This document shows, piece after piece, positions 19,369 to 45,207 of a stretch of 64,000 bases of DNA (its first letter is position 1; each line of letters begins with the position of its first letter). Under the pieces are notes generated by a model. That model did not search any database. It saw only the letters and a list, made by a program, of their open reading frames with translations, and was not told where the DNA came from. This stretch comes from an uncultured Rhodothermales bacterium (GTDB lineage: Bacteria > Bacteroidota > Rhodothermia > Rhodothermales > JANQRZ01): positions 1,236 to 65,235 of the forward strand of contig CAYTJT010000001.1 in NCBI GenBank assembly GCA_964438105.1, in the 5' to 3' direction. The position numbers and the translations under genes were made by a program.

Positions 19369-19445
19369 AGTACGAGTTTGGTTCTCCGAAACGAACCTGG
19401 CCGGACGAGCGCTACCTCTTCGGCAAACGCTGGACCACCTCACCG

Positions 19446-20177: not shown

Positions 20178-20329
20178 TCCGTGTGCGCCGACAGTTCAGC
20201 TAGGCGCACCTTGGCGTCGCGTGCGAGGGGCGAGCCGATCAGACGATTTTCGGAGTCGGTGAGCATTTGGCCGAACTCCTCGTTGGCAACGGCACGGGCG
20301 ATGCGCTCGCGGGCGGACGTACGGATCAT
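20129..20329 (-). CDS. hypothetical 66-aa protein coupled to the HlyD gene
   Basis: Its ATG shares one nucleotide with the HlyD stop (TGATG). No family recognised. Confidence 0.4.
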   Translation of the reverse strand: MIRTSARERIARAVANEEFGQMLTDSENRLIGSPLARDAKVRLAELSAHTECPVAQFRRLSGHELL

Positions 20330-23664: not shown

Positions 23665-23796
23665 TCAGTAGGTCGACGGCGGCGACCCGGCGAGGTCGTC
23701 GGGCGGCGGGCTTGCCGGCTCGTCGTTGCCCCTTCCGTGGTCGTCGGCGCGGAGGGCACCGGTGATCGGTGCTAGCGCGGCCTGGTGGCTGTCCAC
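23665..23796 (-). CDS. mini-ORF B, 43 aa (GTG start), HGRGN..PPPDD family
   Basis: Own translation: (V)DSHQAALAPITGALRADDHGRGNDEPASPPPDDLAGSPPSTY. Paralogous to A and C. Confidence 0.35.
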   Translation of the reverse strand: MDSHQAALAPITGALRADDHGRGNDEPASPPPDDLAGSPPSTY

Positions 23797-25299: not shown

Positions 25300-25305
25300 A
25301 ATCGG

Positions 25306-25780: not shown

Positions 25781-26257
25781 GTGGGCGAGCTGCTCACGCT
25801 GCACCGCTTGACGCTGGCGAAGTATGCCGGGACCGCGCTGAGCGGCATCGGCGGGCTGCACGCCGCGGGCCGGTGGCACCGCGCCGGGCATCCGGTCGTG
25901 TACGCGTCGGAGTCGACGGCGCTGGCCGTGCTCGAAGTGCTGGCGGGCACGCGCGACCGAACGGTGCTGAGGGACGCTTCGTACGTGCGCCTGACGGTCG
26001 ACGTGCCGGCCGAAGGGATCGTTCGCCTGAGCGGCGCAGAGCTTCCCCCGGACTGGCAGGCGTGGCCGCACGGCGAGTCGGCGCAGGAGCTGGGCAGCCG
26101 GTGGCTGGCGAGCCGCGCCTCGCTGGGGCTGTCGGTGCCGTCGACGCTCATCCCGACCGAGCGCAACGTGCTGCTCAACCCGCTGCACCCGGACTGGGGG
26201 CGAGTGGAGGCGAGCGGGCCGGAAGCGTTCGTCTTCGACGCGCGGCTGGGCGAGTAG
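25781..26257 (+). CDS. RES-domain toxin
   Basis: GTG abuts the antitoxin stop. GRWHRAGHPVVYASESTALAVLE ... SVPSTLIPTERNVLLNP. Confidence 0.85.
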   Translation: MGELLTLHRLTLAKYAGTALSGIGGLHAAGRWHRAGHPVVYASESTALAVLEVLAGTRDRTVLRDASYVRLTVDVPAEGIVRLSGAELPPDWQAWPHGESAQELGSRWLASRASLGLSVPSTLIPTERNVLLNPLHPDWGRVEASGPEAFVFDARLGE

Positions 26258-26267: not shown

Positions 26268-28109
26268 TCATCGGACGACGGTGAAGGAGCGGACGGCGGA
26301 GGATGGGCCGCCGGTGAAGCGGGCGAGGTAGAGGCCGGGCGGGAGGTGGGAGACGTCGAGGGTGCGCGGTCCCGTGCGGTGGGTCGGGACGGGGCGTCCG
26401 AGGGCATCATAGAGGTCGACGCGGGTGCCGGGCGGGGCGGTGAAGCGGACGACGGAGCGGGCGGGGTTGGGGTGGAGCAGGAGCGAGAGGCCCCCCACCG
26501 GCCCCCCTCCGCCCTGACGGGCACCTCCCCCCGAAGGGGGGGAGGATGGGTGAGAGGTGGAGTTGCCGAATGCGCCGGTGTGGCTTTGGTGAGTGTTGAT
26601 CGCGCCGGGACTGGTCGAGGCGAGCGACCACGTGAAGTTGTCGTAGCTCGCGCCTGCGCCGGTCAGTTGGAGCGACTGACCGGCGGGGAGCTTGCCCCAC
26701 TCCTGAGCGCTCCACCGGCCGGGCGCGGTGACGGCGTCCGACCAGACGAGCGAGTCGGGGTGCGACGGCGCGTCCGCGCCGAGAGACAGGGCGCGTTCGT
26801 AGACCGGGCCGCTGAGCGCGTTGAAGCGGCAGCCGCCGTAGCTGAGAAACTGGACCGGCACGCCGTCGGGATCGACCAAAGCGACGCCGTTACATCCGCC
26901 GCGCACCTTGGCGGCAGGGACCCAGAGAACCGACAGGCCGACCTGACCGGCGAGCGTGCCGGTGAAGATGGTGAAGCGCTGGCGCTCGTCGAAACCGGGC
27001 AGCTCGGCGGCGTAGGGATGACCGGAGCGCGAGTAGAACCAGAGCGCAAAGCCGTAGAGGTCGGCGCCTGCGAGACCGGCGATCTCGACGCCCTCACCGG
27101 TATCCGGGCCGTCGTTCTCGGCATGGATCTCGTTGATCCAGACGTTTCGAGGACGCGGCGGCGCCTGGCCGCGGCGGTTGAACACGCGGTCAAAGAGGGT
27201 TGGGTCGTCGACGAACGGGTTGCGGTTGCCCTGGATGCGCTCGACGTGCGCGTTGCGGTCGTCCTCAGCCTGGGTGGGCATCCACTGAGGATTGTGGCCC
27301 CAGTCGGCCCATGCCTGGATTTCATCAAGCATGGCGCCGATGAACGCGAAGCCTTCGCCCGCGCTGCGCGCCTCGGCGCCGTACATGACGAGGAAGTAAG
27401 CGGCGGCGCGGGCGGCTGGTCCTCGGGCGGCGTAGCGCGGCACGAAGCGGCCTTGCTCGGCGACGCTCTCATAGCTGTTGCCGTCGTCCGGTGCGCGCTG
27501 AAAATCGCTCTCGGTACCCGAGGAGAGATCGCGCCGCGCCGGGTTGCCATCCGAGTTGACGTAGCGCGTCGTGCGCCCCTTGTGCCACTTGTAAATGTGG
27601 CGCCAGTTGTCGGTAAAGGCGCGGTTCGAGCGGGCGCTGTTGAACGGCCCGAAGGTGGGGGCGAGGTGGTGGAGGTCGCTGCGGGCGGCGCCGCGGCTGG
27701 CGCCTCGGCTCTGCGGCCAGATGTGCTCGGTGTTGAAGTTGTAGAGGTCCTGGGCCTGCCGGCGCGGCGAGCCTGCACTATCGGGATCGAAGAAGGCGCG
27801 AGCGCCGCCGTAGAGACCTTCGACGAAGCGCAGCGTGTCGGCGGTGATGGTGGTGTCGCGCACCAAGTTGTTTACGGCGATGGTCGTGTCACGGACGACT
27901 TCGGTCTGGCGCCAGACGACGGCGAACATGGAATCGCGCGCTGCATCGTAGTCGAGCACGTTGGCGGGCGCGTAGTTCAGGCGGACGCAGCGCTCGGCCT
28001 GCCAGCCGTAGAGGCCGGGGCATATGGGACCGCCGACGGTCCCTCCCTGAGCCGCCGACGTGGACGCCGCAGCCGAGAGTAGGAGCAGGACGAGTAGAGC
28101 GCGCATCAT
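26268..28109 (-). CDS. secreted endonuclease I - lamin-tail domain - T9SS CTD nuclease
   Basis: NTEHIWPQSRGA, DLHHLAPTFGPFNSARSN. LTD-like VWINEIHAENDGPDTGEGVEIAG. CTD LLLHPNPARSVVRFTAPPGTRVDLYD..GLYLARF. Start set at the MMRALLVLLLLSAAAS signal peptide. Confidence 0.8.
   Translation of the reverse strand: MMRALLVLLLLSAAASTSAAQGGTVGGPICPGLYGWQAERCVRLNYAPANVLDYDAARDSMFAVVWRQTEVVRDTTIAVNNLVRDTTITADTLRFVEGLYGGARAFFDPDSAGSPRRQAQDLYNFNTEHIWPQSRGASRGAARSDLHHLAPTFGPFNSARSNRAFTDNWRHIYKWHKGRTTRYVNSDGNPARRDLSSGTESDFQRAPDDGNSYESVAEQGRFVPRYAARGPAARAAAYFLVMYGAEARSAGEGFAFIGAMLDEIQAWADWGHNPQWMPTQAEDDRNAHVERIQGNRNPFVDDPTLFDRVFNRRGQAPPRPRNVWINEIHAENDGPDTGEGVEIAGLAGADLYGFALWFYSRSGHPYAAELPGFDERQRFTIFTGTLAGQVGLSVLWVPAAKVRGGCNGVALVDPDGVPVQFLSYGGCRFNALSGPVYERALSLGADAPSHPDSLVWSDAVTAPGRWSAQEWGKLPAGQSLQLTGAGASYDNFTWSLASTSPGAINTHQSHTGAFGNSTSHPSSPPSGGGARQGGGGPVGGLSLLLHPNPARSVVRFTAPPGTRVDLYDALGRPVPTHRTGPRTLDVSHLPPGLYLARFTGGPSSAVRSFTVVR
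26489..26549. repeat. GC-rich hairpin repeat copy 2, in frame inside the endonuclease gene
   Basis: ggcccccctccgccctgacgggcacctccccccgaagggggggaggatgg. Stem cctcccccc/ggggggagg at 26524-26545. Encodes SSPPSGGGARQGGGGPVGG just before the T9SS CTD. Confidence 0.7.
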
Positions 28110-28110
28110 T

Positions 28111-28812
28111 TCAGTCGCCGAGAGATGCGAGAGAAGCCGACGTGCCGGGGTCACCCGCCCACAGACCCGCCGACGTGGCGCGCGCCTGCCGTTCGCTTCG
28201 CGGTCCCCTGCGGGGTTCGAGCTGGTCGTAGTACTGCTCGCGCTCGTGGGGAAATCGACCGCCGCCGTCGTTGCGCTTCGCGGACCTACGGTTGCTGTGC
28301 GCGAAGCCGCGCTCGATCATGCGCGCGCCGAAGTCAAACGGAGCGCCGGTGTCGACGCCGCCCTCGGCGTTGCGCTTTGCGGACCTGCGGTTGCCGACGA
28401 GGCGGCCGTACTTGCCGCGCGTCGATCCGACGACGCGCACGGCCGATTCGACGGGAAGGAGCTGCTGGGCCTGCTCGGTGGCCGCGACGCCGAGTGCCTT
28501 GATGGCGGCGGCGAGGCGCGAGCGTTCGGCGTCGCGCCTCATCTTCGAGCTGCCGTGCTTCTCAGGCGTGTCGATGCCCTGAATGCGGACGGTTTCGGTG
28601 GCGCCGCTCGCATCGGTCAGCTCGACCGTGTCTCCGTCGACGATGCGCTCGACGGTGTTGCGCTGCGCGGACCTTCGGTTGAGCGTGCCGGGTGCGCCCG
28701 CCTGCGTGAGTTGACCGCACGAGGGCGCCATGCCGGCCAGCGAGAGCAGGACGATTGCAAGCGATGAGAGCGAGTTTAGCGGAGCGCGCATCGTAGTCGA
28801 GTGCTTCATCAT
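28111..28812 (-). CDS. staphylococcal-nuclease-fold (thermonuclease) exported protein carrying four NRRSAKRN-type inserts
   Basis: From MMKHSTT (ATG 28812, ATGA overlap with the ATPase stop). Signal and lipobox-like LAGMAPSC. VDGDTVEL, IQGIDTPE, KYGRL, AGLWAG. Confidence 0.75.
   Translation of the reverse strand: MMKHSTTMRAPLNSLSSLAIVLLSLAGMAPSCGQLTQAGAPGTLNRRSAQRNTVERIVDGDTVELTDASGATETVRIQGIDTPEKHGSSKMRRDAERSRLAAAIKALGVAATEQAQQLLPVESAVRVVGSTRGKYGRLVGNRRSAKRNAEGGVDTGAPFDFGARMIERGFAHSNRRSAKRNDGGGRFPHEREQYYDQLEPRRGPRSERQARATSAGLWAGDPGTSASLASLGD
28191..28682. repeat. four copies of the 26-nt GTTGCGCTTCGCGGACCTNCGGTTG repeat within the SNase gene
   Basis: Copies at 28270-28295, 28369-28394 and 28657-28682, plus a degenerate copy at 28191-28220. 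They encode NRRSAKRN, NRRSAKRN, NRRSAQRN and PRRGPRSERQ. Confidence 0.75.
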
Positions 28813-29927
28813 TTGGTGTCGGGTCGCGGTTGGAACATGAACAGCACCCGAAACACCCTGAAAATCAGGAAGCCCATGATGGTGACGATGGTGAGCACGA
28901 CGTACAAATCCGCGTTGCCGCCGCCGCCCGACATGACGCGAAGCGCGCCCAGCCCGATGAGGAAGAACACGTAGATCAACCCCAGATTGAAGAAGGGGCT
29001 GTCGTCGCGCGCTTGCAGGTCGCGCACGTCCTGGTCGGTGACGAGGCGGCTTTGGGCGCCGTCGTGCATCATGGCGCGCAGGACCGCCGGGTTGCCGCTG
29101 GCGCGTCTGAGCACTTCGCGCCGGTAGTGGCGCCGGTCGGCCGGGGTGATGTCGTAGGAGTTGACGAAGTACTCGAACAGCGCGTCGATGTGGTGATCGG
29201 GCAGGCGCTCGACGCGGATCTGACCGAACGTGGCGAAGAACATGCGCAGCGACTTGCTCGGCGGGATGGTGCGGCAGGCGCCGATGACGGTGACGCGCTG
29301 TTGCAGCTCGCGCAGAAACAAGCCCTGAGCGGGACTGCATCGGTCGAGGCTGTCGAGCGCGACGATGAGGCGGGGTGCACGTCCGCCCTCGGCCAGCTCG
29401 GACAGGCTGGTGAGAACGGCGCGCTGCCGCTCGTCGACGGTGCGCATGAGCCTCTTAGTCTCGGCCCAGCTGTACTCGGCGCACGCGGCGGCGCGCATGG
29501 CGGCGGGCACGTCGGGAATGGCGAGGATGCCGAGCTGGTGAAACGCCTGGGCGAGCGTGTCGACGAGGCGGCCCTGTGGCGCCGCTTCGGCGACGTAGAC
29601 GAGCGTGTACGCCTCACCCGGTTTCTGCGGCATGGCGACGTACTTGCGCCGCGTCTGCCGCTGGGCGTCGGGGCCTAGGCGCACGCGCCGCCCACCGACG
29701 ATGCGGGCGAACTCCTCGATGATGCGGCTCTTGCCGACGCCTTCGCTGCCAATCAGAAGCGTGTGGCGCCCCTGTCGTGAGCGGCGGGCGAGTTCGTCGA
29801 GCTGCGCGCCGTGACCGATCAAGATCGGGTCGGTGAGGACCGTGCACGTCGGCGTGCCCGGAATCTGCATCTGGGGCAGCGGACCGACGACGGGCGCGAG
29901 CTGAGCGGTGACGGGGGCAGCCTGCAT
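28809..29927 (-). CDS. AAA-type ATPase with two C-terminal transmembrane helices
   Basis: Walker A LLIGSEGVGKSRI. Walker B-like RLIVALDSLD. C-terminal FFNLGLIYVFFLIGLGALRV and LYVVLTIVTIMGFLIFRVF. Confidence 0.7.
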   Translation of the reverse strand: MQAAPVTAQLAPVVGPLPQMQIPGTPTCTVLTDPILIGHGAQLDELARRSRQGRHTLLIGSEGVGKSRIIEEFARIVGGRRVRLGPDAQRQTRRKYVAMPQKPGEAYTLVYVAEAAPQGRLVDTLAQAFHQLGILAIPDVPAAMRAAACAEYSWAETKRLMRTVDERQRAVLTSLSELAEGGRAPRLIVALDSLDRCSPAQGLFLRELQQRVTVIGACRTIPPSKSLRMFFATFGQIRVERLPDHHIDALFEYFVNSYDITPADRRHYRREVLRRASGNPAVLRAMMHDGAQSRLVTDQDVRDLQARDDSPFFNLGLIYVFFLIGLGALRVMSGGGGNADLYVVLTIVTIMGFLIFRVFRVLFMFQPRPDTK

Positions 29928-31511
29928 CTATTTGTGGAGTCTGGCCCAGAGGCGCGACGCCTCCTCAATGCACGGGTCTTCGCTGGCCGAGTGCGCCGAC
30001 GCGAAGGCCATCAGCTTGCCGCACACGTCGGGCGTGATCTTGCCGCGCTGGCGTCCGAAGAGCATCCACCGTTTGGGCGGCTTCTCGACCATGAGGTAGC
30101 GCAGGTAGGCGACGGCGTGAGTGGGAGGTACAGTCTCGCCGGTGACGCCCAGTTCGCTCAGCGCGTGCGCGTGAAGCGCTTGAGCCTTGTCGCTGCCGCT
30201 CGCGTCGGCGAGCAGGTCGTAGACGCCCCGGCGCAGCGTTTCGAGTTCGGCGGCGTGCGGGTGCGGCGCCGCATCGGCGCCAGGCGTGGCGGCTGGATGA
30301 GCGGCGGCTGTCGGAGGTGCGAAGCGCTCGCCTGGTGCCTGCTCCGGCTCGGGCGGTGCGAGGCTCGCGGCGGCGGCCGACGGCTCGACGTGCGGTGCCG
30401 GTGCGATGTGCTCGGCCGACTCGATGGGCTTCTCGGCGCCGCTCGCCCGGTCTGCCGCGCCGCTGCTTTCGTCGACGACGGGCGGCTCGTCGTCGCTTTG
30501 CTCGATTGGCGAGAAAAACGGCAGCGGGTCGCTGCCTACGGGTGGGCCGCCCTGCATTTCGAGTACGAGCGCGGCCAGTCCGGTTGCGACGGGGTGTGAC
30601 GGCTCGACGGCGCGTGGCCGTTCGGCACGCTCTTTCAGGTACGTCTCGACCTGCTCAGCCTGCTCGCTGCTGGGCGGAGCCGACGCGCGCAGCTCGGTTT
30701 CGGCCTGAGCCAGCGCCGCCGCCGCGTCGCCGCCGCGCCGCGCCTGGGCCAGCCGGTTGGCTTCGCGGATGGCGGCCATGAGGTCGAACGGTGTGCCGCC
30801 CTTATCCGGCAAGACAGCTTTATTCTTGGCGCGGTCGTAGAGGAGCACGCGGCCGACGAATCCGGCCATGTGGCCGGATAGCACGGCGGCGAGACCGGCG
30901 GGGTCGATGGTGCCGCCTGGGATGAGCGGGTGGCTGTGGTCGGGCACGACACCGACGCTGGATGACAGCTCGTGCAGGTCGACCAGGCGCAGGCGCGGGC
31001 GCTTGGCGTCGGTGAAATCATTGAGTTCGAGCACGCCGTTGCCGCAGCCTGAGCGGACGAGCTGATCGGCGACGAGCTGAGCGTCGGGGACATGCGTGCC
31101 GGAATGGAAACTCGGCTGGCCGTCCCCCGAAGCCTCGCCGATCATCAGCTTCATGCATTCGGAGTAGAACACCGTTTCGATAAAGCGGGCACACTCGGTC
31201 TCGGATAGTTCGTAGACCGAGAGGAAAGCGGGCCGACCGGCGTCGCGGTGCTCGATGAAGCGCCGAAGCGCGACGGCGGGCATAACGGGAAACCGGTAGT
31301 CGGGCGTATTGCGCGCGACGGTTAGAAGCTGTCCGGAGACGCAGACGAACGCGTCGTATACGCCGCCGAGCACGGCCAGCGACTCTTCGGTCTCGGCGTA
31401 GCGCACGACGATGAGCGCGACGACGCCCTCGGCCTGCTGGTCGGCCAGACCGACGGGGTCCGCGAACGTCGCGGGCACGTTCTCGAAGATGGGCTTGGCT
31501 GTGGTGAGCAT
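29928..31511 (-). CDS. hypothetical 527-aa protein (Pro/Ala-rich central linker)
   Basis: Long ORF with no recognisable family. Junctions to both neighbours are 0-1 nt. Confidence 0.6.
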   Translation of the reverse strand: MLTTAKPIFENVPATFADPVGLADQQAEGVVALIVVRYAETEESLAVLGGVYDAFVCVSGQLLTVARNTPDYRFPVMPAVALRRFIEHRDAGRPAFLSVYELSETECARFIETVFYSECMKLMIGEASGDGQPSFHSGTHVPDAQLVADQLVRSGCGNGVLELNDFTDAKRPRLRLVDLHELSSSVGVVPDHSHPLIPGGTIDPAGLAAVLSGHMAGFVGRVLLYDRAKNKAVLPDKGGTPFDLMAAIREANRLAQARRGGDAAAALAQAETELRASAPPSSEQAEQVETYLKERAERPRAVEPSHPVATGLAALVLEMQGGPPVGSDPLPFFSPIEQSDDEPPVVDESSGAADRASGAEKPIESAEHIAPAPHVEPSAAAASLAPPEPEQAPGERFAPPTAAAHPAATPGADAAPHPHAAELETLRRGVYDLLADASGSDKAQALHAHALSELGVTGETVPPTHAVAYLRYLMVEKPPKRWMLFGRQRGKITPDVCGKLMAFASAHSASEDPCIEEASRLWARLHK

Positions 31512-32308
31512 CAGCGGCCTCCGGTGGCTGATGCTGTAGCGGCTCCGACGAGTTCGTTGGGCGAAGCGCCTGCGCCGAGCGCGGCGAGCTGCGCGGCCGT
31601 CGTGGCGGCGGCGTGCTCAGCCGAGAGGACGGCTAGGCGGGCGGCGGCGAGCTGGGCGTATTCCATCTCGCCCTGCTCGTACTGCATCTCGGCCAGCGCC
31701 AGAAGCTCTCGTACAGCCGTGAGACGGCGGGCTTCGTACTCCTGCTGAATGCGTAGCTGCGTGGCTACAAGCCGGGCACGGCGCTGCTCATCGGCCTGGC
31801 GCTTCTCGGCTGCGAGGCGGCGGTCGCGCTCGGCCCTCGTCTGCTGCTCGCGGCGGGCGGCGGCCAGCTCGATGCGCGCCTGGGCAACGCGCACGTCGGC
31901 CCTTGCGCGGTGCAGCGGGCGGCGGTCGAGGAGCTGGTCGAGCGACCAACTGATGGTGACGCCCCAGGTGTCACCGGGCCACTGCGCAATGGCGGCATAG
32001 GCGGGGTCGTAGCCCTGAGACGAGATCGCGGGAAAGGCGAAGCCGCGCGCCGAGACCGAGCCGAAGAAGTCGACTTTGGGGCGCCAGCGACGGTGCCAGG
32101 CGACGGCGCGCAGCTCGGACCTAGCCAGGTCGAGGCGGGCCGTCTCGACAGCGAGACCGGCGGCAAGGGCGGCAGCCGACGTGTCCGCGGACAAGCCACC
32201 CGTGGCGTAGCCGATGGCGAACGAATCGAGCACGCCGCTTGCGGGCTGTGCCCAGGCGGCGTGCACCGGTGCGAGTGCGAGAAGCAATATGGTCGCTGCC
32301 CGGATCAT
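31511..32308 (-). CDS. half-length TolC-like outer-membrane protein
   Basis: Signal peptide MIRAATILLLALAPVHAAWAQ. One Ala/Arg/Gln-rich helical hairpin plus short beta segments. About half the usual TolC length. Confidence 0.45.
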   Translation of the reverse strand: MIRAATILLLALAPVHAAWAQPASGVLDSFAIGYATGGLSADTSAAALAAGLAVETARLDLARSELRAVAWHRRWRPKVDFFGSVSARGFAFPAISSQGYDPAYAAIAQWPGDTWGVTISWSLDQLLDRRPLHRARADVRVAQARIELAAARREQQTRAERDRRLAAEKRQADEQRRARLVATQLRIQQEYEARRLTAVRELLALAEMQYEQGEMEYAQLAAARLAVLSAEHAAATTAAQLAALGAGASPNELVGAATASATGGR

Positions 32309-32706
32309 GCGCCGGCGTGCGACCAGCTGTGAGGGATGGGAAGGAGCGCGCCGGTCGCTGCGCCGTCGCCGGTAGCTGTGGTCTCGGCTTCGATACCGGC
32401 CGCTTGTGCGAGTGCGTCGAGGTCGTCGCAGTCGAGGTAGGAAGCGAACAGCGAGAGCGTGTGCCCCGTCACGTCTGCGCGCGCGCCGGGCGGCATGTCG
32501 TCGTAGCGGATGGTGTGCCAGAGCCGGAGCGAAAGGAAAGTGAGATCGTCGTCCGGGCGAGCGCGCGGCTGAGCGGCGGTGAGGCTGCTGCGGACGGTGC
32601 TGATCGAGTACGTCTCGCCGGAGAGCATTCGGTGGAGCGCAGCGGCGATACTGCCGCGCTGGAAGTCGGTGAGACCGTGCATGGTGCCGTGGGTCTGTGG
32701 CCGCAC
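32305..32706 (-). CDS. hypothetical protein
   Basis: 133-aa ORF. ATGA overlap with the TolC-like start. Confidence 0.45.
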   Translation of the reverse strand: MRPQTHGTMHGLTDFQRGSIAAALHRMLSGETYSISTVRSSLTAAQPRARPDDDLTFLSLRLWHTIRYDDMPPGARADVTGHTLSLFASYLDCDDLDALAQAAGIEAETTATGDGAATGALLPIPHSWSHAGA

Positions 32707-32871
32707 GCCGACGCGTGGCGTGGCAGCCGTCGAGAGAAGAGGCGCATCGTCCCCCGGCCCGTCAGCTTGTCGCTGGTGGGACGAGCCGGGGGAGTGCGAG
32801 CGCCTGAGCGGGGCGCCAGTGGCCCCGTGAGCACCGGTTCAGTAGGAGAGGGACCGGCGGAGCGCAGGCGC

Positions 32872-33819
32872 TTAGCCCTCGCTGTTCTCGCGCACGACAA
32901 CACCATCGCCGCCGCGCTGCTTGGTCTGGCGGAAGTCGCCGTTCGGAAACTCGGTGCGGCTGATGACCGAACCCGACGAGTTCTCGCCCGAGCTGAGCAG
33001 CGTACGGAGCAGCGTCCCGGTGAAACTACCATCGGCGTTGACGGTGAAGCCCGCTTCGTAGTAGCGCGTGCGGACAGCTCCGTTCGCCCCGCCGTCGCGG
33101 ACGGAGCCTGTGCCGTTGGCGTTGAGCGTCACGACCGGCTCGCGGATGGTGTACGACTCACGCGCTTCGGCGTTGGCGTAGGTGACGACGGCGCCGCCCG
33201 TCGTGGGCGAATAGACCTGCCCGACGCGCCACGTGTCGTAGCTGGTGTTGTCGAAGCTGGCCGCCGCCGATCCGGTGCCTTTGAGGTAGTTCACCGTTCC
33301 GCCTTTGAGCGCCGCGACGAACGCATCGAGTTGGGCCGCCGTGGTGAACGTGAGGTTGACCGACTCGACGCCGTTGAGAGCCGCCGTGTTCGCGTCGCCA
33401 TCGTGATCGACGGCGAGGCCGTGCTGAACGCGCGTGCCCCACACGCTGACGCCTTGGGGCTGGCGGTGGGTGAGCTGCACCAGGTAGCCTTTGCCGAGCG
33501 TGCTGTTGTAGACGCCGGTGTACGTGGTGGTGTCGGCCTGCATGGCGCTGGCCTGGGCCAGACCGAGGCGGGCGGCCTCGTAGCCGGTGTTGCCGGTCTT
33601 GCCGAAGCCGTTATCGAAGCCGAGATCGAAGAGCGATTCGACCTCCTCAAACACTTCGACGACGAGGTGTTCGGCGTTCGACGGCAGTGGCGCCAGGTCC
33701 GGCGGCGTGTCGGCAGCGCTCAGGTCGGCGGAGTCGCAGGCGGCGAAGCCGAGCGCGCACAACGCGACGGCGGCGGAGAGGAGGCCGCGCGAAGCGGCGA
33801 GGGTACGCGGAGAGCGCAT
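32872..33819 (-). CDS. lipoprotein, beta-rich, unknown function
   Basis: Track ORF 32872..33924 trimmed to MRSPRTLAASRGLLSAAVALCALGFAAC (lipobox). Confidence 0.55.
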   Translation of the reverse strand: MRSPRTLAASRGLLSAAVALCALGFAACDSADLSAADTPPDLAPLPSNAEHLVVEVFEEVESLFDLGFDNGFGKTGNTGYEAARLGLAQASAMQADTTTYTGVYNSTLGKGYLVQLTHRQPQGVSVWGTRVQHGLAVDHDGDANTAALNGVESVNLTFTTAAQLDAFVAALKGGTVNYLKGTGSAAASFDNTSYDTWRVGQVYSPTTGGAVVTYANAEARESYTIREPVVTLNANGTGSVRDGGANGAVRTRYYEAGFTVNADGSFTGTLLRTLLSSGENSSGSVISRTEFPNGDFRQTKQRGGDGVVVRENSEG

Positions 33820-33959
33820 GACGGTAGGGGATGTTGCCCAGGACGCGTTGGAGTTGGAGCGTCGAAAGGACGGGCGCACCGCGGACGGTGCTGTGTGAAC
33901 CCCTGCCGGATCTGGTGGTAACACAGACCGGACAGCGGCATTGTTGGGATTTCGATCCT

Positions 33960-33978
33960 GGCGCTAGTTGAGCGGCTG
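33960..33978 (-). promoter_or_regulatory. conserved CTAG-containing upstream motif, copy 3
   Basis: ggcgctagttgagcggctg lies upstream of the lipoprotein operon. Confidence 0.4.
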
Positions 33979-34007
33979 ATCTACGCGAGGGTGGTTCCTC
34001 GCACGGG

Positions 34008-34039
34008 CCGCCGGGTGCCTCCGCACTCGGCGGTTTTTT
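34008..34039 (+). terminator. canonical intrinsic terminator on the plus strand (orphan)
   Basis: ccgccgggtgc-ctcc-gcactcggcgg followed by tttttt. 11-bp stem including one G-U pair. All neighbouring genes are on the minus strand. Confidence 0.6.
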
Positions 34040-34089
34040 GCGTTCGGCCGGGACGCGCAGGGCGTCCGGGTGTGGCCGGGCAAGCGTGC

Positions 34090-34173
34090 CTACGCGTTGT
34101 CGGGCGGAGGCTGGTTGCCGCCGCCGTGGTCAGCGCGAAGCGGACCGAACGGCCCGTAGGGGTTAATCAGCAT
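34090..34173 (-). CDS. mini-ORF C, 27 aa, HGGGN..PPPDN family
   Basis: Own codon-by-codon translation: MLINPYGPFGPLRADHGGGNQPPPDNA. 66 nt downstream of the YdjM-HlyD fusion gene. Confidence 0.35.
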   Translation of the reverse strand: MLINPYGPFGPLRADHGGGNQPPPDNA

Positions 34174-34239
34174 GATGCTGGGGGTGTGTGCTCTTTCGAG
34201 CGATTTGGGGTTGAATCGGTGCGGGGCGGTCCGAGCGCG

Positions 34240-35973
34240 TCAGCGGTTCGGACCGGACGGCTCACCGGCGCCGTCCGTAGGAGAAGGGGAAGACGAGCGC
34301 GCGCGCGTCGCCTGCTCGACCAGGACGACGCGCACCTCGGTGCGGTCGGGGCCGTGCGGGTGGCGCTCGATGCGCGCGACGACGCCGCGAGCAGGCGAGA
34401 CGACGTACGTGTCGCTCTGCGCCTGAACGGCCTTGATCTGCGCCCGGGTGACGCGGGCGCGGGCTTTGCGCTCGCGCTCGGCGTGGCCGCGCTGCCAGTC
34501 GGAGAGGCGAAGAGCGGCTTGGTCGAGAGCAGCGTCGGCGTCGGCCGACACGCGTTCGGCGCGCTCGACGGCTGCCGCCGACGCGAAGCCGCCGGCGTGC
34601 TGCTGCCGTTTGCGCTGGGCAGCGTCGCGTGCCGCGTCGGCGCGGGCGCGCAGCGAGACCGGATCGGCGGCGGGCGCGCGCTCGGAGAGCACGGCGGAAA
34701 GATCGGCCTGAGCGTCGGTCAGGTCGAGGCGCGCATCCTGGACGCTGGCCGGGGAGAGGACGGCGACGGTGTCGCCCTGAGCGACCGTGTCGCCTTCGGC
34801 GATGAGCAGCCGGGGCGGCTCGCTGGGCTTGTGCGCGAACGGCACGCGGCGCACGCTGCCGGTTTCGAGAGCGGCCGGATCGTAGTTCTCGACCTCACCC
34901 TCGGGCAAGTAGACGCGGACCGATACGACGCCGGTTTCGACGATGCGGTCGAGCAGTCCCAGGCGGCGTAGATCGTCGAGCGTGGCGAACTGCAAGCTGA
35001 GATTGGTACCCGACCCGGTGACGGTGTTGAAGTGGAACGCGTCAGGCGTGATGGCCTCGCCGTCGGTCGTGGTGAGCTGGCCGTCGAGCAGGTGACGGGC
35101 GCGCGAGCCGTCGGAGCGCAGCGGGACGAGGTTCTCGAGGTCGGCGATGACCCGGCCCGCTAGGTCGGCGCGGCGGCGCGAGACGGTGACGGCTTCGCCC
35201 TTGTGCGCGTTGACCTTGTCGGGCTGGAAGTTGGCCGAGTAGGCTTCCCCGAGGGAAAAGGTCTCGCCGGTCTCAGGGTCGCGCACGAGCAGCGTCGAGA
35301 TACCTGTCGTGCCGATGGCGTCGTACGTGCCTTCGAGGCGGCGCATATGCTCGGGGTCGCTAGCCGAGACGCTGACGCTGACGAGGTGGCCGTCGCCGCT
35401 CCAATCCAAGAAGTCCCTGACTGCGGCCGATGCGTCGGCCTGAACGGAGCGCACGAGGCGGTGGTAGCCCTGCATCTGGACGACCGCAAACGGGATGGTC
35501 AGAGCCAAGAACAGCACGCCGAAGAAAGTGTCTACCCGGCTGCCGGTGACGGTGCGGTATGCCGTCTCCTGGCGGTTGTAGTAGGGAAAGACGCCGCGCA
35601 CGTCGGACCACGGCCAGAATACCCAGACGCCTTGAACCGTCCAGGTGTCGAGGAAGCAGTGAGACAGGTAGCCCGCGACGACGGCGGCGTAGAGGTGCGG
35701 CCAGTCCCACCAGAGCAGGGGCAGGCAGGCGACGACGACGACGGCCTGAGCGGCGTAGCAGTGCGTGATGGTGCGGTGTCCCCAGCGCCGTTCGATGCGG
35801 CGCGCAATCGGCTTGAACGTGCGGCCGACGGTCGAGCCGAGCGTGTCGACGTCGGGCGCGGCGGAGGCGGCACCGGCCAGCACCAGCCCGGCGGGCGTCA
35901 GGGGGATCTGAAAGAGTGTGGCGCTCAGGGTGTAGGCGAGGATGCCGCCGGTGAGGTGCGTTCCGAGCTGCAT
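34240..35973 (-). CDS. fusion protein: YdjM/DUF457-like membrane metal-hydrolase + HlyD/MFP-like adaptor
   Basis: From MQLGTHLTGG (ATG 35973; alternative start 36009). His strings WGHRTITH and GYLSHCFLD in the TM region. C-terminal LLIAEGDTVAQGDTVAVLSP hairpin, coiled coil, VVSPARGVVARIE. Confidence 0.6.
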   Translation of the reverse strand: MQLGTHLTGGILAYTLSATLFQIPLTPAGLVLAGAASAAPDVDTLGSTVGRTFKPIARRIERRWGHRTITHCYAAQAVVVVACLPLLWWDWPHLYAAVVAGYLSHCFLDTWTVQGVWVFWPWSDVRGVFPYYNRQETAYRTVTGSRVDTFFGVLFLALTIPFAVVQMQGYHRLVRSVQADASAAVRDFLDWSGDGHLVSVSVSASDPEHMRRLEGTYDAIGTTGISTLLVRDPETGETFSLGEAYSANFQPDKVNAHKGEAVTVSRRRADLAGRVIADLENLVPLRSDGSRARHLLDGQLTTTDGEAITPDAFHFNTVTGSGTNLSLQFATLDDLRRLGLLDRIVETGVVSVRVYLPEGEVENYDPAALETGSVRRVPFAHKPSEPPRLLIAEGDTVAQGDTVAVLSPASVQDARLDLTDAQADLSAVLSERAPAADPVSLRARADAARDAAQRKRQQHAGGFASAAAVERAERVSADADAALDQAALRLSDWQRGHAERERKARARVTRAQIKAVQAQSDTYVVSPARGVVARIERHPHGPDRTEVRVVLVEQATRARSSSPSPTDGAGEPSGPNR

Positions 35974-35975
35974 CG

Positions 35976-36386
35976 CTACGACCGGTACATGATCGTGGTC
36001 AGCTCCCACGACTCGGTGACCGCGCCGGGCGCGTCGGGCGTGACGTATAGCTCGACGACGTATTCGCCCTGTGGAGCGAAGAGGCTATTGGGACCGATGC
36101 CGCGCCAGTGCGCTTCGCGCTGCCCCGCCGTCTCGCGGCGCGGGCGGGTGATGTCGCGCACGAGCGAGCGCGTTCCGTCGGCCCCTACGGCGGTGATGCG
36201 GATTTGGACCTCGCCGCTGATTTCGAGCCGGTACCGGATGACGCACGGCTCCTCGAACGCGTTGAACGTAGGGCTGACGCGAAAGCTGCTGACCGACTCG
36301 ACGGCGGAGGAGACGCCGACAGGCGGCGTGCATCCGGCCAGAACGAGAAGAGCCGAAGAGGCGAGCAGGTACGGGAGAACGGTCAT
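35976..36386 (-). CDS. small lipoprotein, beta-sandwich-like
   Basis: MTVLPYLLASSALLVLAGC lipobox. The start forms an ATGA overlap with the integrase stop. Confidence 0.6.
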   Translation of the reverse strand: MTVLPYLLASSALLVLAGCTPPVGVSSAVESVSSFRVSPTFNAFEEPCVIRYRLEISGEVQIRITAVGADGTRSLVRDITRPRRETAGQREAHWRGIGPNSLFAPQGEYVVELYVTPDAPGAVTESWELTTIMYRS

Positions 36387-37480
36387 GCGACCCCCTGCAC
36401 GATAGGACCGCGCAGGTGCTCGCGCTGTCCGATGCCACTGGCCAGTCCGGCCGACTCGACGAGCTTGCGCAAGCTCTCCTCGTCGACGTGCGTGTACAGC
36501 TCGGTCGTCTGGATCGAGGCGTGGCCCAGCAGCTCCTGGACGGATCGGATGTCCCCCGATGCTTTGAGGCTGAGCGTGGCGAAGGTGCGGCGCAGCACAT
36601 GGGGCGTCAGGCGCACACGCGCTTTGATCTGCCGGCCGAGACGCGCGCACGAGCGCTCGAGCTGGGCGTATTGCACGCCGCGTCCGGTGATGGTGATGAA
36701 GACCTCGTCGGCCGACGTAGGCACGAGGCGCCGAACGGTGAGCCAGTCGAACATGGCCGGATAGGCGAAGCCGACCAGAGGCACGGTGCGCGTCTTGTTG
36801 CCCTTGCCAGAGAAGGTGAGCGACATTCCGTCGCGCTGCTGCTTGAACGCTCGACGAGGCAGCGTCATCACCTCCTCGACGCGCAGACCGGCAAACGCCA
36901 TCAGGGTGAGACAGGCACGGCGGCGAGCCGCCACGAGCAGGAGCGCGAAGGCGCGGGTCCTCTTTTCTCGGCTGACCGTTTCGAATCGCCGAGTGGCCGA
37001 CGACACGTCGGCGGAGAGGCGCGCGGCCAGGCGCTCGAGTTCGCTATCGGTGAGCACCTTGTGCGTCTCGCTTTTGCGGTCGAAGCCGGGAAGGTCCAGC
37101 AGCTCGAACGGCGAAGCGCTGACCTCCTCGATGCCTCGTAAGAACTTGAAGAAGCTGCGCAAGGTCGAGATGTGCCGCTTGACCGTTCGGGCGTGTACCT
37201 GAGACGAGAGCAGCGTCGTGTACGCCTCAGCGTCCCGGCGGCGCACTTGGTGAAGGGCCAGGGTTCGATCGGTCAGAAAGTCGCGGAAGTGGCGCAGGTC
37301 TCCGCGGTAAGCCCGCTCGGTATGGCGGCTGCCGCTCCGGGTGCGCCGCGTTCGGCCGATGAACATCTCGACGGCCTCGTCGAAGCTCAGTCGCTTGGTT
37401 GCAGCGCCGCCCGCCGGGCGAGCGGCTGGGAGAACCAGCGGGGTCGGCGGCAGGGCGTGAGGGGGAGAGAAGCGCTGCAT
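36383..37480 (-). CDS. tyrosine recombinase/integrase (XerC/D-like)
   Basis: From MQRFSPP (ATG 37480). Core-binding YRGDLRHFRDFL. Catalytic GLRVEEV, HVLRRTFAT, LLGHASIQTTELYTHV. Confidence 0.9.
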   Translation of the reverse strand: MQRFSPPHALPPTPLVLPAARPAGGAATKRLSFDEAVEMFIGRTRRTRSGSRHTERAYRGDLRHFRDFLTDRTLALHQVRRRDAEAYTTLLSSQVHARTVKRHISTLRSFFKFLRGIEEVSASPFELLDLPGFDRKSETHKVLTDSELERLAARLSADVSSATRRFETVSREKRTRAFALLLVAARRRACLTLMAFAGLRVEEVMTLPRRAFKQQRDGMSLTFSGKGNKTRTVPLVGFAYPAMFDWLTVRRLVPTSADEVFITITGRGVQYAQLERSCARLGRQIKARVRLTPHVLRRTFATLSLKASGDIRSVQELLGHASIQTTELYTHVDEESLRKLVESAGLASGIGQREHLRGPIVQGVA

Positions 37481-37504
37481 AGATCTGAAGGACCGTTGAC
37501 GGGG

Positions 37505-37533
37505 AGATACCCAGATGCAACAATGTCTGTCAA
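37505..37533 (-). promoter_or_regulatory. sigma70-like promoter for the integrase (TTGACA-N17-GTATCT)
   Basis: Minus strand reads acTTGACAgacattgttgcatctggGTATCT, 24 nt upstream of ATG 37480. Confidence 0.4.
37514..37532 (+). repeat. 19-nt direct repeat GATGCAA(C/G)AATGTCTGTCA, copy 1 (upstream of int)
   Basis: 18 of 19 identical to 39783-39801. Confidence 0.65.
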
Positions 37534-37694
37534 GTCCATGCATGCAGAATCATAGCTAGCGCGCGTTATGTGAGACCCGTATTGACGGGCACATCGCGTG
37601 CCAATCGCGGCATAGGCATACGGGAATGCCGATTCGGCGGTGCGTCTTATAAGGCCGCACGCGGCACGAGCGAGGACAACTTTTCTGGGGGGTG

Positions 37695-37718: not shown

Positions 37719-38333
37719 TCGCTTTGCGCCGCGGAATCGGCGACGTATGTGCGGTCGTCTTGCGGCAGTCGTCGTCGGCTTTTGGTGTGTTGGTCCTGAC
37801 CGGCGCCGCGTGTTCGGGTATGGGAGGTCGCGGCGGAAAGAGCCGTCCGGTGGTTCGGCAGGGGTGGTGGGTCGACCGATAGGTAGCGAACAGCATTTGA
37901 AGCGGCCTCCTGCGGGGCGATGCGTCAAAGCGGGTAGGGGATGGTCGGGGGTCACCCGCGCGCCGTCCCGTCAGCGATCAGTTCGGGCTTGGGTGGCCTA
38001 GGTTGCTCGGCGCCGCGCCGCGCGCCGTCCCGTCGATGCCGCGGTCTACCTCGGCAGCTGGTCGAGGGGAGAAACGATCAGCGGTCGAGCGACCGGCCGG
38101 ATTCGGCTCGGCGCATCGGTCAGCGCTCGGTTTCCCCACCCGGCTACCCCTTGGTAGCCGGAGCGCGCAGCGCTCCAGCAAATCCGGCGGACGCGAAGCG
38201 TTCGACCAAACGGGAATGCGCGTCAGCGCCAGCCAATCAGCCAGGCCCGAAGGGACTGCCGTTATTGTAAGCCCTGTTTTCCCCAACAGCGCTCGAACCC
38301 CTTACTAGAACCTTAAAGGAGATCTTAGAAGAT

Positions 38334-38494
38334 GGTGGGGTACTTATTCGTGGGACGAGACACTGAACCTTAGAAGATGGTGGGGTACTTATTCGTAGAT
38401 GCGTGACCGGCCTCTGACTGTTCTATTAGTAGATGGTGGGGTACTTATTCGTAGGTGGGGTACTTATTCGTCACAAGGTGGGGTACTTATTCGT
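38334..38494 (+). repeat. five 18-bp iterons GGTGGGGTACTTATTCGT (oriV candidate)
   Basis: Exact copies at 38334, 38379, 38435, 38454 and 38477. The first two carry the prefix cttagaagat. They lie immediately 3' of the rep gene. Confidence 0.85.
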
Positions 38495-38537
38495 GGACAA
38501 CTCTGGGCAGCCCTAGCGGCACGCCGGGTTGTCCACA
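38493..38537. promoter_or_regulatory. inverted pair of DnaA-box-like 9-mers (GTGGACAAC ... TTGTCCACA)
   Basis: 9-bp perfect inverted repeat. TTGTCCACA matches TTATCCACA at 8 of 9 positions. Adjacent to the iterons. Confidence 0.4.
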
Positions 38538-45203: not shown

Positions 45204-45207
45204 CGGC

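Follow-up and report, generated by a model that had tools for sequence, protein, structure and literature searches.

We begin by considering a gene array in a 64,000-nucleotide stretch of DNA from an uncultured Rhodothermales bacterium (GenBank assembly GCA_964438105.1, contig CAYTJT010000001.1, positions 1,236 to 65,235), to which we refer as the window. The array is a conserved set of backbone operons of a RepA_C/iteron plasmid family of the Rubricoccaceae (Rhodothermales). Within it lies a core that is restricted to plasmids and shared across phyla, namely a membrane-tethered AAA_16 ATPase and a YdjM-type membrane protein that has a conserved periplasmic middle domain and an adaptor-like lipoyl/hairpin part, the latter either fused to it or encoded separately. 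In Thermus and in the Rhodothermales, a protein with a single repeat of the OEP (TolC-type) family and a small lipoprotein join this core. We tentatively read the encoded proteins as a TolC/adaptor-type conduit through the cell envelope, assembled or powered by the ATPase, that may act together with extracytoplasmic nucleases on DNA at the envelope for the benefit of the plasmid; this is a possible reading rather than a probable one, and it is weighed against its alternatives below.

A conserved array in the plasmid backbone

The map of open reading frames (ORFs) places all ten genes of the array on the minus strand (26268-37543) and reproduces the ORFs, strand and coordinates given in a preliminary description of this DNA, in which an alternative start (37480) was used for the recombinase. 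The features are listed in Table 1. The seven gene junctions claimed there are exact when the minus strand is read directly: the recombinase and lipoprotein genes share ATGA (36383-36386), the lipoprotein and YdjM genes are separated by 2 nt, the 133-aa and 265-aa genes share ATGA (32305-32308), and the following junctions are TGATG (265-aa/527-aa), TAGATG (527-aa/ATPase), ATGA (ATPase/staphylococcal nuclease) and TGAAATG, a 1-nt gap (staphylococcal nuclease/endonuclease I). Only two gaps are wide, one of 315 nt between the YdjM gene and the ~350-aa lipoprotein gene and one of 165 nt between the latter and the 133-aa gene. The conserved array also reaches past the limits first drawn for it, extending downstream to 20329 with a second endonuclease I, an ATP-binding cassette (ABC) exporter and a HlyD adaptor.

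Table 1. Array genes and adjoining features of the window, with the evidence for each assignment
Feature	Position	Strand	Evidence
RepA_C replication initiator	38594..39691	-	Pfam RepA_C E 1.6e-19
Five iterons, core GGTGGGGTACTTATTCGT, putative replication origin	38325..38499	.	repeat search: five copies, spacing 19-56 nt
XerC/D-like tyrosine recombinase, first array gene	36383..37543	-	Phage_integrase E 4.8e-24 and SAM_1
136-aa lipoprotein, FlgD-type Ig-like beta-sandwich	35976..36386	-	lipobox LAGC; FlgD E 0.006
577-aa inner-membrane protein: YdjM-type metal-hydrolase, middle domain, adaptor-like C-terminus	34240..35973	-	YdjM E 3.5e-24
~315-350-aa lipoprotein, no fold assigned	32872..33924 (likely start 33819)	-	signal peptide and lipobox AAC
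133-aa soluble protein	32305..32706	-	no domain match; orthologue in most relatives
265-aa secreted protein, single TolC/OEP repeat	31511..32308	-	signal peptide; Pfam OEP E 0.01
527-aa cytoplasmic protein, family without known relatives	29928..31511	-	79 homologues, all unnamed
372-aa AAA_16 (ORC/STAND-like) ATPase, C-terminal membrane hairpin	28809..29927	-	AAA_16 E 1.7e-9
233-aa staphylococcal-nuclease-fold lipoprotein	28111..28812	-	SNase E 4.5e-5
613-aa endonuclease I with type IX secretion system (T9SS) C-terminal sorting domain	26268..28109	-	Endonuclease_1 E 2.3e-16; TIGR04183 above cut-off
Second endonuclease I with T9SS sorting domain	23869..25056	-	Endonuclease_1 E 1.2e-33; Por_Secre_tail E 1.8e-8
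ABC exporter (transmembrane domain and ATPase), accessory member	21552..23432	-	ABC_membrane E 1.1e-26; ABC_tran E 1.5e-22
HlyD-family periplasmic adaptor, partner of the ABC exporter	20329..21549	-	HlyD_D23 E 2.3e-11; HlyD_3 E 3.3e-8; Biotin_lipoyl_2

The next question is "does this arrangement exist in other genomes?" The contexts of relatives were gathered by exact look-up and pattern scans, and they were compared by tblastn and with profile hidden Markov models (HMMs) built from the orthologues. About 16 independent plasmid-like contigs of Rubricoccaceae/Rhodothermales preserve the gene order and its close coupling, with amino-acid identities of 36-70%. Every locus with enough flank has the order recombinase, lipoprotein, YdjM fusion, ~350-aa lipoprotein, then proteins of ~120, ~265 and ~500 aa, and ATPase. 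The junctions that join the last four of these genes overlap or span at most ~50 nt, the exception being one junction of 83 nt in locus L023. The recurrence of both order and junctions is far beyond chance, and co-occurrence across genomes, on which the preliminary description had let its reading depend, is strong. Downstream, the ABC exporter and the HlyD adaptor are found in six lineages (the window and five relatives).

Two of the relatives, L023 and L024, come from one sample (ENA ERZ25070591; contigs ctg147039_13x_c of 89128 bp and ctg147048_15x_c of 80312 bp) and carry a copy of the array each; judging from the _c suffix of their names, they are probably two related circular plasmids of 80-89 kb in one community. 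The initiator of L024 is of the Rep_3 type rather than RepA_C. A more divergent locus of low GC content, L026, was obtained from an exhaustive HMMER search. It encodes the recombinase, the lipoprotein, counterparts of the ~350-aa, 265-aa and 527-aa proteins and a hydrolase of the metallo-beta-lactamase fold, and has neither the ATPase nor the YdjM protein.

We turn our attention to the replicon. The upstream side of the array abuts the iterons and then RepA_C, and because the XerC/D-like recombinase adjoins these elements we regard the array as plasmid backbone. RepA_C also lies upstream of the array in L005, L010, L012, L023 and L025, and the placement of the recombinase beside RepA is conserved among the relatives. 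The best matches of the recombinase are the XerC and XerD models (E 1e-52 to 1e-47; TIGR02224 XerC E 2.6e-52), with scores below the equivalog cut-offs. Since it has both the Phage_int_SAM_1 and the Phage_integrase domain and its gene stands beside a plasmid origin, it is a candidate for multimer resolution of the Xer type. The earlier label "integrase-led" therefore stands in that the recombinase is the first gene of the array, and falls in so far as it implies a mobile cassette: the enzyme is XerC/D-like, its gene lies beside RepA and the iterons, and a repeat search of the window finds no direct-repeat (att-type) pair flanking the 26-38 kb array. An integrative cassette (a genomic island, or an integrative and conjugative or mobilizable element) was rejected on the same grounds, together with the lack of a supported tRNA. 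A phage or phage-plasmid origin was rejected, a search of the IMG/VR viral contigs having given no relatives. The genes for ParA and a ribbon-helix-helix protein are at 16954-17982. No relaxase, coupling protein, VirB4-type ATPase or other sign of a type IV secretion system (T4SS) is found among the scanned ORFs of the window, which is a part of the plasmid, and a megablast of the region against the plasmid database PLSDB gives no match.

A core shared across phyla

Combining the information of the conserved array with that of sequenced plasmids, we explore whether its central proteins occur together outside the Rhodothermales. PLSDB was searched by tblastn with the ATPase and with the YdjM protein. 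Distant homologues of the two are adjacent to each other in all ten of the plasmids inspected, with a small toxin-antitoxin pair between them in Nitrosococcus; 53 of the 54 PLSDB plasmids that carry a relative of the 577-aa YdjM protein are typed as non-mobilizable.

Thermus sp. 4C (plasmid pL4C, NC_010878.1 5804-6715 to 2406-4040) and T. brockianus (plasmid pTbrSNM4-1c) carry a related operon. It begins with the gene of an AAA_16 ATPase, which in pL4C alone is followed by a small ORF, and continues with those of a 225-236-aa "TolC family protein", a ~140-aa lipoprotein, an 85-aa coiled-coil protein and a ~545-aa "metal-dependent hydrolase". Its stops and starts overlap, ParA is encoded beside both operons, and pL4C has a tyrosine recombinase as well. 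The cyanobacterial plasmids examined are those of Synechococcus elongatus UTEX 3055 (pMAL) and IITB3, Synechocystis PCC 6803 (pSYSX, 4346-7470), Nostoc and Stanieria, and their order is hypothetical protein, ATPase, YdjM protein. In four of these five a DUF87/TrwB-like ATPase gene comes next and then one more ORF; in Stanieria, genes for a hypothetical protein and a GIY-YIG nuclease take their place. The additional ATPase is of the HerA/FtsK clade (TrwB_AAD_bind E 2.3e-10; best NCBIfam model CedD, E 1.1e-12, then VirB4 and CedB). In S. elongatus the ORF after it encodes a lipoprotein of 256 aa, equivalent to the C-terminal third of the YdjM protein of the window (hmmsearch E 3e-7), and it is in S. 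elongatus alone that the adaptor-likeness of this ORF is established. In the gammaproteobacterial plasmids (Allochromatium, Nitrosococcus, Methylobacter) the order is again hypothetical protein, ATPase, YdjM protein, near replication genes. Overlapping stop and start codons recur in the Thermus and the cyanobacterial versions. A comparison of the 527-aa family with the cyanobacterial protein encoded upstream of the ATPase is non-significant in hhalign. Public annotation of the module is generic ("ATP-binding protein", "metal-dependent hydrolase", "TolC family protein", "hypothetical").

Another gene is common to several of these plasmids. A Siphovirus Gp157-family gene is present in the window (12422-12964, minus strand) and also on two of the plasmids with an ATPase-YdjM pair, those of Allochromatium and Nitrosococcus (L027 3673-4173; L028 1065-1565), where it adjoins an AAA ATPase gene, with a single-stranded DNA-binding protein gene in addition in Allochromatium. 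This co-occurrence hints at a second backbone module common to several phyla.

The components of the module

The N-terminal domain of the 577-aa protein scores 85.7 bits against a cut-off of 29 for PF04307 (YdjM/DUF457), which makes it a member of that family. The residues H6, D41, D43, E61, H66, H71 and D109 of this domain are invariant across four phyla and are likely metal ligands. Over its full length, the 577-aa family aligns with the 544-aa protein of Thermus pL4C (hhalign probability 99.9, E 1.8e-34, 529 columns), and the Thermus YdjM-type protein shows a weak resemblance to zinc phospholipase C (E 5e-4). At the C-terminus of the 577-aa protein a split lipoyl motif flanks a coiled coil (HlyD PRK03598 E 0.0059), an organization similar to that of a membrane fusion protein (MFP), as the adaptors of efflux pumps are called. 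This part aligns with the MFP-like lipoprotein of cyanobacteria at an hhalign probability of 90.8; the latter itself matches the DevB, HlyD, MdtN and EmrA models, and the Thermus homologue matches DevB at 2e-4 and Biotin_lipoyl_2. All these scores lie below the curated cut-offs. The suggestion in the preliminary description that the array encodes an envelope-spanning machine gains support from this adaptor-like C-terminus. A profile of the family searched against the sequences of the Protein Data Bank (PDB) gives nothing or matches at the level of the P-loop only, as do the profiles of the ATPase, ~350-aa and 265-aa families; a literature match for "DUF457" concerned DUF4579, which is unrelated. 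For the YdjM/DUF457 family, the module is the first setting from which a role suggests itself.

The 265-aa protein shows a single Pfam OEP stretch (residues 47-177), and the window's canonical CusC-like OEP protein shows two. Its AlphaFold2 model (mean pLDDT, the predicted local distance difference test, of 78) has the order helix, strand, strand, long helix, helix; with two strands only, this is the topology of one TolC repeat. The leading Foldseek matches in the PDB are all of the TolC family (CmeC, OprM, OprN, SilC, MtrE and TolC) and are weak (E 0.25-5). These observations back, weakly, the earlier designation of the protein as a half-size TolC. The family is restricted to the Rhodothermales clade that has the array. 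In hhalign it has no significant similarity to the window's own OEP protein or to the half-size TolC of Thermus, and its profile finds nothing significant among PDB sequences. The Thermus counterpart, at the equivalent position of the operon, matches a single complete OEP repeat (E 1.7e-9).

The ATPase has Walker A (GSEGVGKS) and Walker B (LDSLD) motifs, and a hydropathy scan places transmembrane helices at residues 315-333 and 341-359, so that its first description as a Walker A/B ATPase with two C-terminal membrane helices is borne out. The AAA_16 domain followed by two such helices is common to the ATPases of the window, Thermus and Synechococcus. Identity among the Rhodothermales relatives is 61-69%. 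Homology to the Thermus plasmid ATPase extends past the P-loop (hhalign probability 82.6, E 9.7e-6), and the Nitrosococcus and Allochromatium plasmid ATPases match at tblastn E 8e-16 to 2e-8. With solved structures, the family profile finds similarity only at the level of the P-loop.

The 527-aa protein is without detectable relatives, in sequence or in fold, outside its own family, and the earlier statement that it has no recognisable family stands: the Pfam search, the search of its family profile against PDB sequences and the Foldseek searches of PDB and BFVD are all empty. Among its 79 homologues, all unnamed, the named sources are Rubricoccus marinus and Rubrivirga, and the others are metagenome-assembled genomes; an exhaustive HMMER search of 1.84 billion proteins yields 77 representatives, none with a Pfam domain. 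The AlphaFold2 model (mean pLDDT 72) consists of an alpha/beta N-domain (1-230), helices, a disordered Pro/Ala-rich linker (326-413) and a five-helix C-domain, and the N- and C-domains each have a pLDDT above 85. Three candidate leads on this gene were discarded. An actin-like (ASKHA) fold of the N-domain, considered on the basis of strand/helix order and of Hydantoinase_A at E 0.093, found only noise in Foldseek against PDB and BFVD. The 816-aa protein P0208, an apparent fusion with the N-domain, sits on the frameshift-ridden contig L025 and is no real fusion. ARAGORN calls an 84-nt tRNA-Gly(TCC) within the coding sequence (31061-31144, minus strand); there is no Rfam tRNA at the gathering threshold, and the call is most likely a false positive.

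The two lipoproteins and the 133-aa protein complete the list. The family profile of the 136-aa lipoprotein is weakly FlgD-Ig-like against the PDB, and the protein is kept in all loci with sufficient upstream flank, the distant variant L026 included; against the 138-aa lipoprotein of Thermus, hhalign is non-significant and the alignment is limited to the lipobox. The ~350-aa lipoprotein is kept in all relatives, including L015 and L026, and has no Pfam or PDB match. The 133-aa protein matches no domain.

The nucleases

The staphylococcal-nuclease call for the 233-aa lipoprotein is upheld: the SNase domain scores 24.3 bits against a cut-off of 21, a signal peptide is followed by Cys, and the DGDT and GIDTPE motifs can be read in the sequence. 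After these motifs an internally duplicated peptide (GNRRSAKRNAEGG / SNRRSAKRNDGGG, residues ~140-185) interrupts the nuclease fold. The 613-aa protein is likewise endonuclease I with a sorting domain, as first described; TIGR04183 scores 27.5 bits against a cut-off of 23 and the N-terminus is hydrophobic, as in cargo of the T9SS. The lamin-tail domain (LTD) also attributed to it does not appear in Pfam at E<0.01, such a domain being recorded only in the second nuclease of the relatives L023 and L012. The second endonuclease I of the window carries its sorting domain as listed, and its assigned start is probably too short to reveal a signal peptide. The idea that the apparatus delivers the nucleases is not supported, the two endonucleases I having signal peptides and T9SS sorting domains of their own and the SNase being a lipoprotein.

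How constant is the link between nuclease and module? Endonuclease I follows the ATPase in 16 of the 17 assessable Rhodothermales loci, and nucleases are paired in L004-L006, L008, L009, L012 and L023. In the window, endonuclease I is connected to the ATPase through the SNase gene by start/stop overlap; the SNase gene is a variable member, found among the Rhodothermales loci only in the window and in Rubricoccus marinus. In L026 the secreted enzyme is not endonuclease I; encoded between the 265-aa-like and 527-aa-like genes (8696-9985), it is a metallo-beta-lactamase-fold hydrolase with a T9SS sorting domain and weak similarity to the anti-Pycsar protein Apyc1. The association recurs in other phyla with different nuclease families. 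An SNase gene is adjacent to the module in Thermus sp. 4C pL4C and in Synechococcus (S. elongatus) and stands ~4 kb off in Synechocystis; Methylobacter has a NUC endonuclease near the module and Stanieria the GIY-YIG nuclease. Since unrelated families of secreted nucleases or hydrolases exchange at a kept position, the activity rather than the particular gene seems to be under selection.

Other features of the window

Between the two endonuclease I genes of the window there is a RES toxin and Xre-like antitoxin pair (25055-26257, plus strand), which we take as a lineage-specific insertion because the relatives keep the two nuclease genes adjacent. Further downstream, between the second endonuclease I and the ABC exporter, there are two 63-nt direct repeats (23507-23569 and 23691-23753, 184 nt apart and 81% identical), perhaps a site of regulation or binding. 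Directly downstream of the HlyD gene, the last of the array, a 25-nt inverted repeat (TTTTATAAAAGGCAGCAAAGCAGCA / TGCTGCTTTGCTGCCTTTGATAAAA, 96% complementary) brackets a 2.2-kb segment of low GC content (55-58%; 17845-20106) with ORFs of 478 and 243 aa that have no Pfam match; this segment may be an unclassified insertion element.

The remainder of the window includes genes for a serine resolvase, UmuDC, an MmeI-type enzyme, a Piwi-domain protein and copper/metal-resistance cargo. The Piwi-domain protein (795 aa, a prokaryotic Argonaute, Pfam Piwi E 4.2e-10; 389-2776, minus strand) is encoded in a stretch of low GC content (58-60%), and directly upstream is the gene of the 1160-aa MmeI-type restriction-modification enzyme (2848-6330, minus strand); the two look like a plasmid-borne defence pair. 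The cargo region (41934-47921, 49012-51117 and 56463-58439, all minus strand) encodes CusCBA-type resistance-nodulation-division (RND) efflux with a heavy-metal-binding adaptor; judged from ORF size and composition only, a P-type ATPase and a multicopper oxidase are likely to be encoded there too. It is a metal-resistance load typical of environmental plasmids.

A possible mechanism and its alternatives

With these components at hand, a model of the apparatus can be drawn. The YdjM-type metal-hydrolase domain of the 577-aa protein would lie in the inner membrane, and the C-terminal lipoyl and alpha-hairpin part of the same protein would reach up through the periplasm like an efflux-pump adaptor. 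In the outer membrane, the 265-aa single-repeat TolC-like protein would contact the hairpin tip to tip, and six copies of it might rebuild the 12-strand, 12-helix duct of TolC and so match a hexameric adaptor. On the cytoplasmic face, the AAA_16 ATPase on its membrane hairpin and the coupled 527-aa partner would assemble, gate or energise the complex, which the two lipoproteins (136 aa, Ig-like; ~320 aa) would complete. The apparatus would cooperate with the T9SS-exported endonuclease I and the lipoprotein SNase, and its action would most probably be to destroy or restrict incoming or extracellular DNA, such as that of competitor plasmids or transforming DNA. The physical complex and its stoichiometry are inferences, as are the substrate, the part played by the ATPase and the benefit to the plasmid.

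Several observations weigh against this conduit. The TolC-likeness of the 265-aa protein comes from weak scores (OEP E 0.01, Foldseek E of at least 0.25, hhalign non-significant), and in the MFP-like part neither of the two other domains of canonical adaptors, the beta-barrel and the membrane-proximal one, is found. Because the nucleases are exported by signals of their own, their delivery requires no TolC-like duct. Their genes are less tightly coupled in the relatives, with gaps of often 100-300 nt after the ATPase gene, and they are not constant companions: the distant variant L015 keeps seven core genes in rearranged order and shows no nuclease over 10 kb, the plasmids of Allochromatium and Nitrosococcus show none within 9 kb, and no nuclease is annotated in the ~10 kb inspected around the ATPase/TolC/YdjM operon of T. 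brockianus pTbrSNM4-1c. Nuclease genes are common on plasmids, moreover, and their link to the module is a plain count of recurrent neighbours. Finally, the cyanobacterial versions carry the VirB4/CedD/coupling-protein-like ATPase between the YdjM and adaptor genes, which fits DNA translocation better than DNA destruction.

The last point leads to the main alternative, a non-canonical conduit for the export or donation (or the import) of plasmid DNA, in which the duct and the membrane ATPases move the DNA, for instance to naturally competent neighbours, and the nucleases nick it, remove one strand or clear competing DNA. We consider it unlikely, if worth serious attention. Plasmids typed as non-mobilizable would in this way have a route of transfer. 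In its favour are the HerA/FtsK-clade ATPase with its TrwB_AAD_bind, CedD, VirB4 and CedB matches, the non-mobilizable typing of nearly all of the PLSDB relatives (53/54) and the absence of relaxase and T4SS from the window, the position of the module next to an origin and a site-specific recombinase, and the CHAP peptidoglycan hydrolase gene that follows the ATPase-YdjM pair in Allochromatium. Several hosts are naturally transformable, Thermus, Synechocystis and S. elongatus among them. Nuclease genes are listed within conjugation regions, such as nuc of R64 (PMC6112013). The HerA/VirB4-like ATPase is missing, however, from the Rhodothermales, Thermus and gammaproteobacterial versions, and where present in cyanobacteria it also matches defence proteins in PADLOC (mad8 E 3e-21, DndH); no relaxase, oriT or pilus genes are found, and abundant secreted nucleases would degrade the donated DNA. 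A TolC-type lumen, too, is not known to let DNA through. That the apparatus is an abortive-infection or defence module is very improbable. The STAND/ORC-like NTPase would there sense invasion and activate a phospholipase-like hydrolase that damages the envelope, with the nucleases as extra effectors, a scheme to which the weak matches of the ATPase relatives to nSTAND1/3/6 and Avs2, the weak similarity of the YdjM domain to zinc phospholipase C, the defence genes in which the window is rich (Argonaute, MmeI-type enzyme, RES/Xre) and the match of the SNase to a PADLOC candidate SNc+LTD family all lend something. Against it stand the lack of a system-level PADLOC match, ATPase matches confined to the P-loop (E 1e-3 to 1e-7), the shortness of the ATPase (300-370 aa), which is without sensor repeats, and a fixed site beside the origin rather than in variable defence islands; a periplasmic adaptor, an outer-membrane duct and lipoproteins are unexpected in an abortive-infection effector.

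Two further explanations do without a joint action on DNA, and both appear to us rather improbable. The apparatus might be an exporter akin to type 1 secretion, its substrate being a protein, a peptide or a small molecule (a toxin, bacteriocin or surface factor) unrelated to DNA, the nucleases being neighbours with an independent role in nutrition (scavenging of phosphate or nucleotides) or in biofilms. Its TolC-like and MFP-like parts, the canonical ABC exporter and HlyD in the same array in 6 lineages and the status of the nucleases as T9SS cargo that requires no duct all agree with this, as do the marine hosts (Tara and JGI marine samples), DNA being a phosphorus source in marine settings. 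Yet no transporter domain can be recognised in the core, and the phyla have no conserved gene in common that could encode a cargo. Many relatives lack the ABC/HlyD pair, as do Thermus, the cyanobacteria and the gammaproteobacteria, and confinement to plasmids, beside replication and partition genes, suits a backbone function over a cargo trait. The genes might also be independent backbone functions (dimer resolution, an efflux-like pump, nucleases) that are held in line by plasmid inheritance and have no joint mechanism. The two wide intergenic gaps (315 and 165 nt), the loose coupling of the nuclease genes in relatives (100-300 nt) and L026, with its lipoproteins and 265-aa-like and 527-aa-like genes and no ATPase or YdjM, speak for such collinearity, and since most of the Rhodothermales loci belong to one plasmid family, shared descent inflates the synteny. 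On the other side, the ATPase/YdjM-adaptor pair (in Thermus with half-size TolC and lipoprotein) is kept across phyla without other plasmid synteny, on plasmids whose initiators, where annotated, are RepA_C, TrfA/IncFII-type or CyRepA1 (none is so annotated on Thermus pL4C), and the overlapping stop and start codons recur in Thermus and in cyanobacteria.

If we return to the proposed conduit and generalize it, the module could represent an unrecognised and ancient class of plasmid envelope machine, built from a hexameric single-repeat TolC, a fusion of adaptor and metallo-hydrolase and a tethered AAA+ ATPase, that moves or processes DNA across the envelope. We hold this broader proposal to be doubtful, and its consequences are the following. 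Plasmids of Thermus, cyanobacteria, Chromatiales and Rhodothermales that are typed as non-mobilizable would gain a transfer route or a barrier to the entry of DNA, and the single-repeat TolC would be a living form of the TolC ancestor before its duplication; an apparently unduplicated repeat bears in any case on the evolution of outer-membrane ducts. Most sequenced plasmids are without known machinery for transfer or exclusion, and the module, which occurs on plasmids of four phyla and fills 20% of the 21-kb Thermus plasmid, is a strong candidate for a missing plasmid function. The 527-aa family offers a confidently predicted structure with no detectable relatives. Versions of the module on plasmids of tractable organisms (Synechocystis PCC 6803 pSYSX, S. 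elongatus UTEX 3055, Thermus) make the hypotheses directly testable.

Relation to described systems

The core matches no described secretion, conjugation or defence system. The preliminary description could map the array onto none, and this stands after searches of Pfam, NCBIfam, PADLOC, PDB sequences and Foldseek. PADLOC-DB 2.0 gives no system-level match, its only single-protein matches being mad8 for the ATPase (E 0.0011, in the P-loop region) and the candidate SNc+LTD model for the SNase, with none for the other eight proteins; the Thermus and cyanobacterial ATPase-YdjM pairs give no system match either. We found no description of the module in the literature on Rubricoccus plasmids, YdjM, pSYSX/pANL, Thermus plasmids or half-size TolC.

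Several systems resemble single parts. The GspA/ExeA-type ATPases of type II secretion are small, belong to the AAA_22/AAA_16 type and are anchored in the inner membrane, where they assist in building the machine rather than pump substrate; GspA has one transmembrane segment followed by a periplasmic peptidoglycan-binding domain. The ATPase of the module is likewise small and membrane-tethered, the link in sequence being a weak match to a related PEP-CTERM ATPase model only; it differs in having two C-terminal helices and no periplasmic domain, and no significant sequence relationship was seen. The parCBA region of RK2/RP4 places a site-specific recombinase and an SNase homologue on the plasmid backbone. 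In R64 (IncI1), nuc is listed among the genes of the transfer system (PMC6112013). Both recall the array's plasmid-backbone recombinase with a staphylococcal-nuclease homologue, the nuclease comparison being at the level of the SNase fold, and both lack TolC-like, adaptor-like, YdjM and AAA_16 parts. With endonuclease I of E. coli (EndA) and Vibrio (Dns), the array enzymes share the Endonuclease_1 catalytic domain, whereas they are plasmid-borne, duplicated, T9SS-tagged and syntenic with an envelope module. In Vibrio, enzymes of this kind limit natural transformation.

The closest counterparts are the plasmid operons of the other phyla. That of Thermus has the ATPase with two C-terminal transmembrane helices, a half-size OEP protein, a ~140-aa lipoprotein and a full-length homologue of the YdjM-adaptor protein, with overlapping stops and starts and, on the small plasmid pL4C, the SNase gene next door together with a tyrosine recombinase and ParA. 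It differs in that no counterpart of the 527-aa, ~350-aa or 133-aa proteins is detected, in that its half-size TolC and small lipoprotein have no detectable sequence similarity to those of the window, and in that it has no endonuclease I or T9SS; to our knowledge Thermus has no T9SS at all. The cyanobacterial operon shares the ATPase with a C-terminal transmembrane hairpin, the YdjM gene directly after it, whose product keeps the same middle domain, the adaptor-like C-terminus as a separate lipoprotein in S. elongatus, and a thermonuclease gene adjacent or within ~4 kb in S. elongatus and Synechocystis. Here the YdjM and adaptor parts are split, with the HerA/VirB4/CedD/coupling-protein-like ATPase between them, a half-size TolC is not recognised, and the upstream partner is unrelated to the 527-aa family.

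Among described machines, the module is most like a tripartite TolC-dependent conduit of efflux or type 1 secretion (AcrAB-TolC, MacAB-TolC, HlyBD-TolC, DevBCA-HgdD), yet it is not a member of that class. As in those systems, an OEP/TolC-like protein is encoded together with a putative lipoyl/alpha-hairpin adaptor, the adaptor-like part matches DevB, HlyD and EmrA (weakly and below threshold), and a canonical ABC and HlyD pair is found within the same array, although this pair (ABC626/p406) is absent from many relatives and from all the other phyla. The differences are that the outer-membrane protein has one OEP repeat where the canonical protomer, three of which make up a 12-strand barrel, has two, TolC-family protomers being described only as internally duplicated (PMC8277102 section 6.2), and that the core has no ABC, RND or major facilitator superfamily transporter. 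The adaptor-like part of the module is reduced to lipoyl and hairpin and forms one protein with the YdjM metal-hydrolase membrane domain, and the energy would come from the AAA_16 ATPase with its membrane hairpin.

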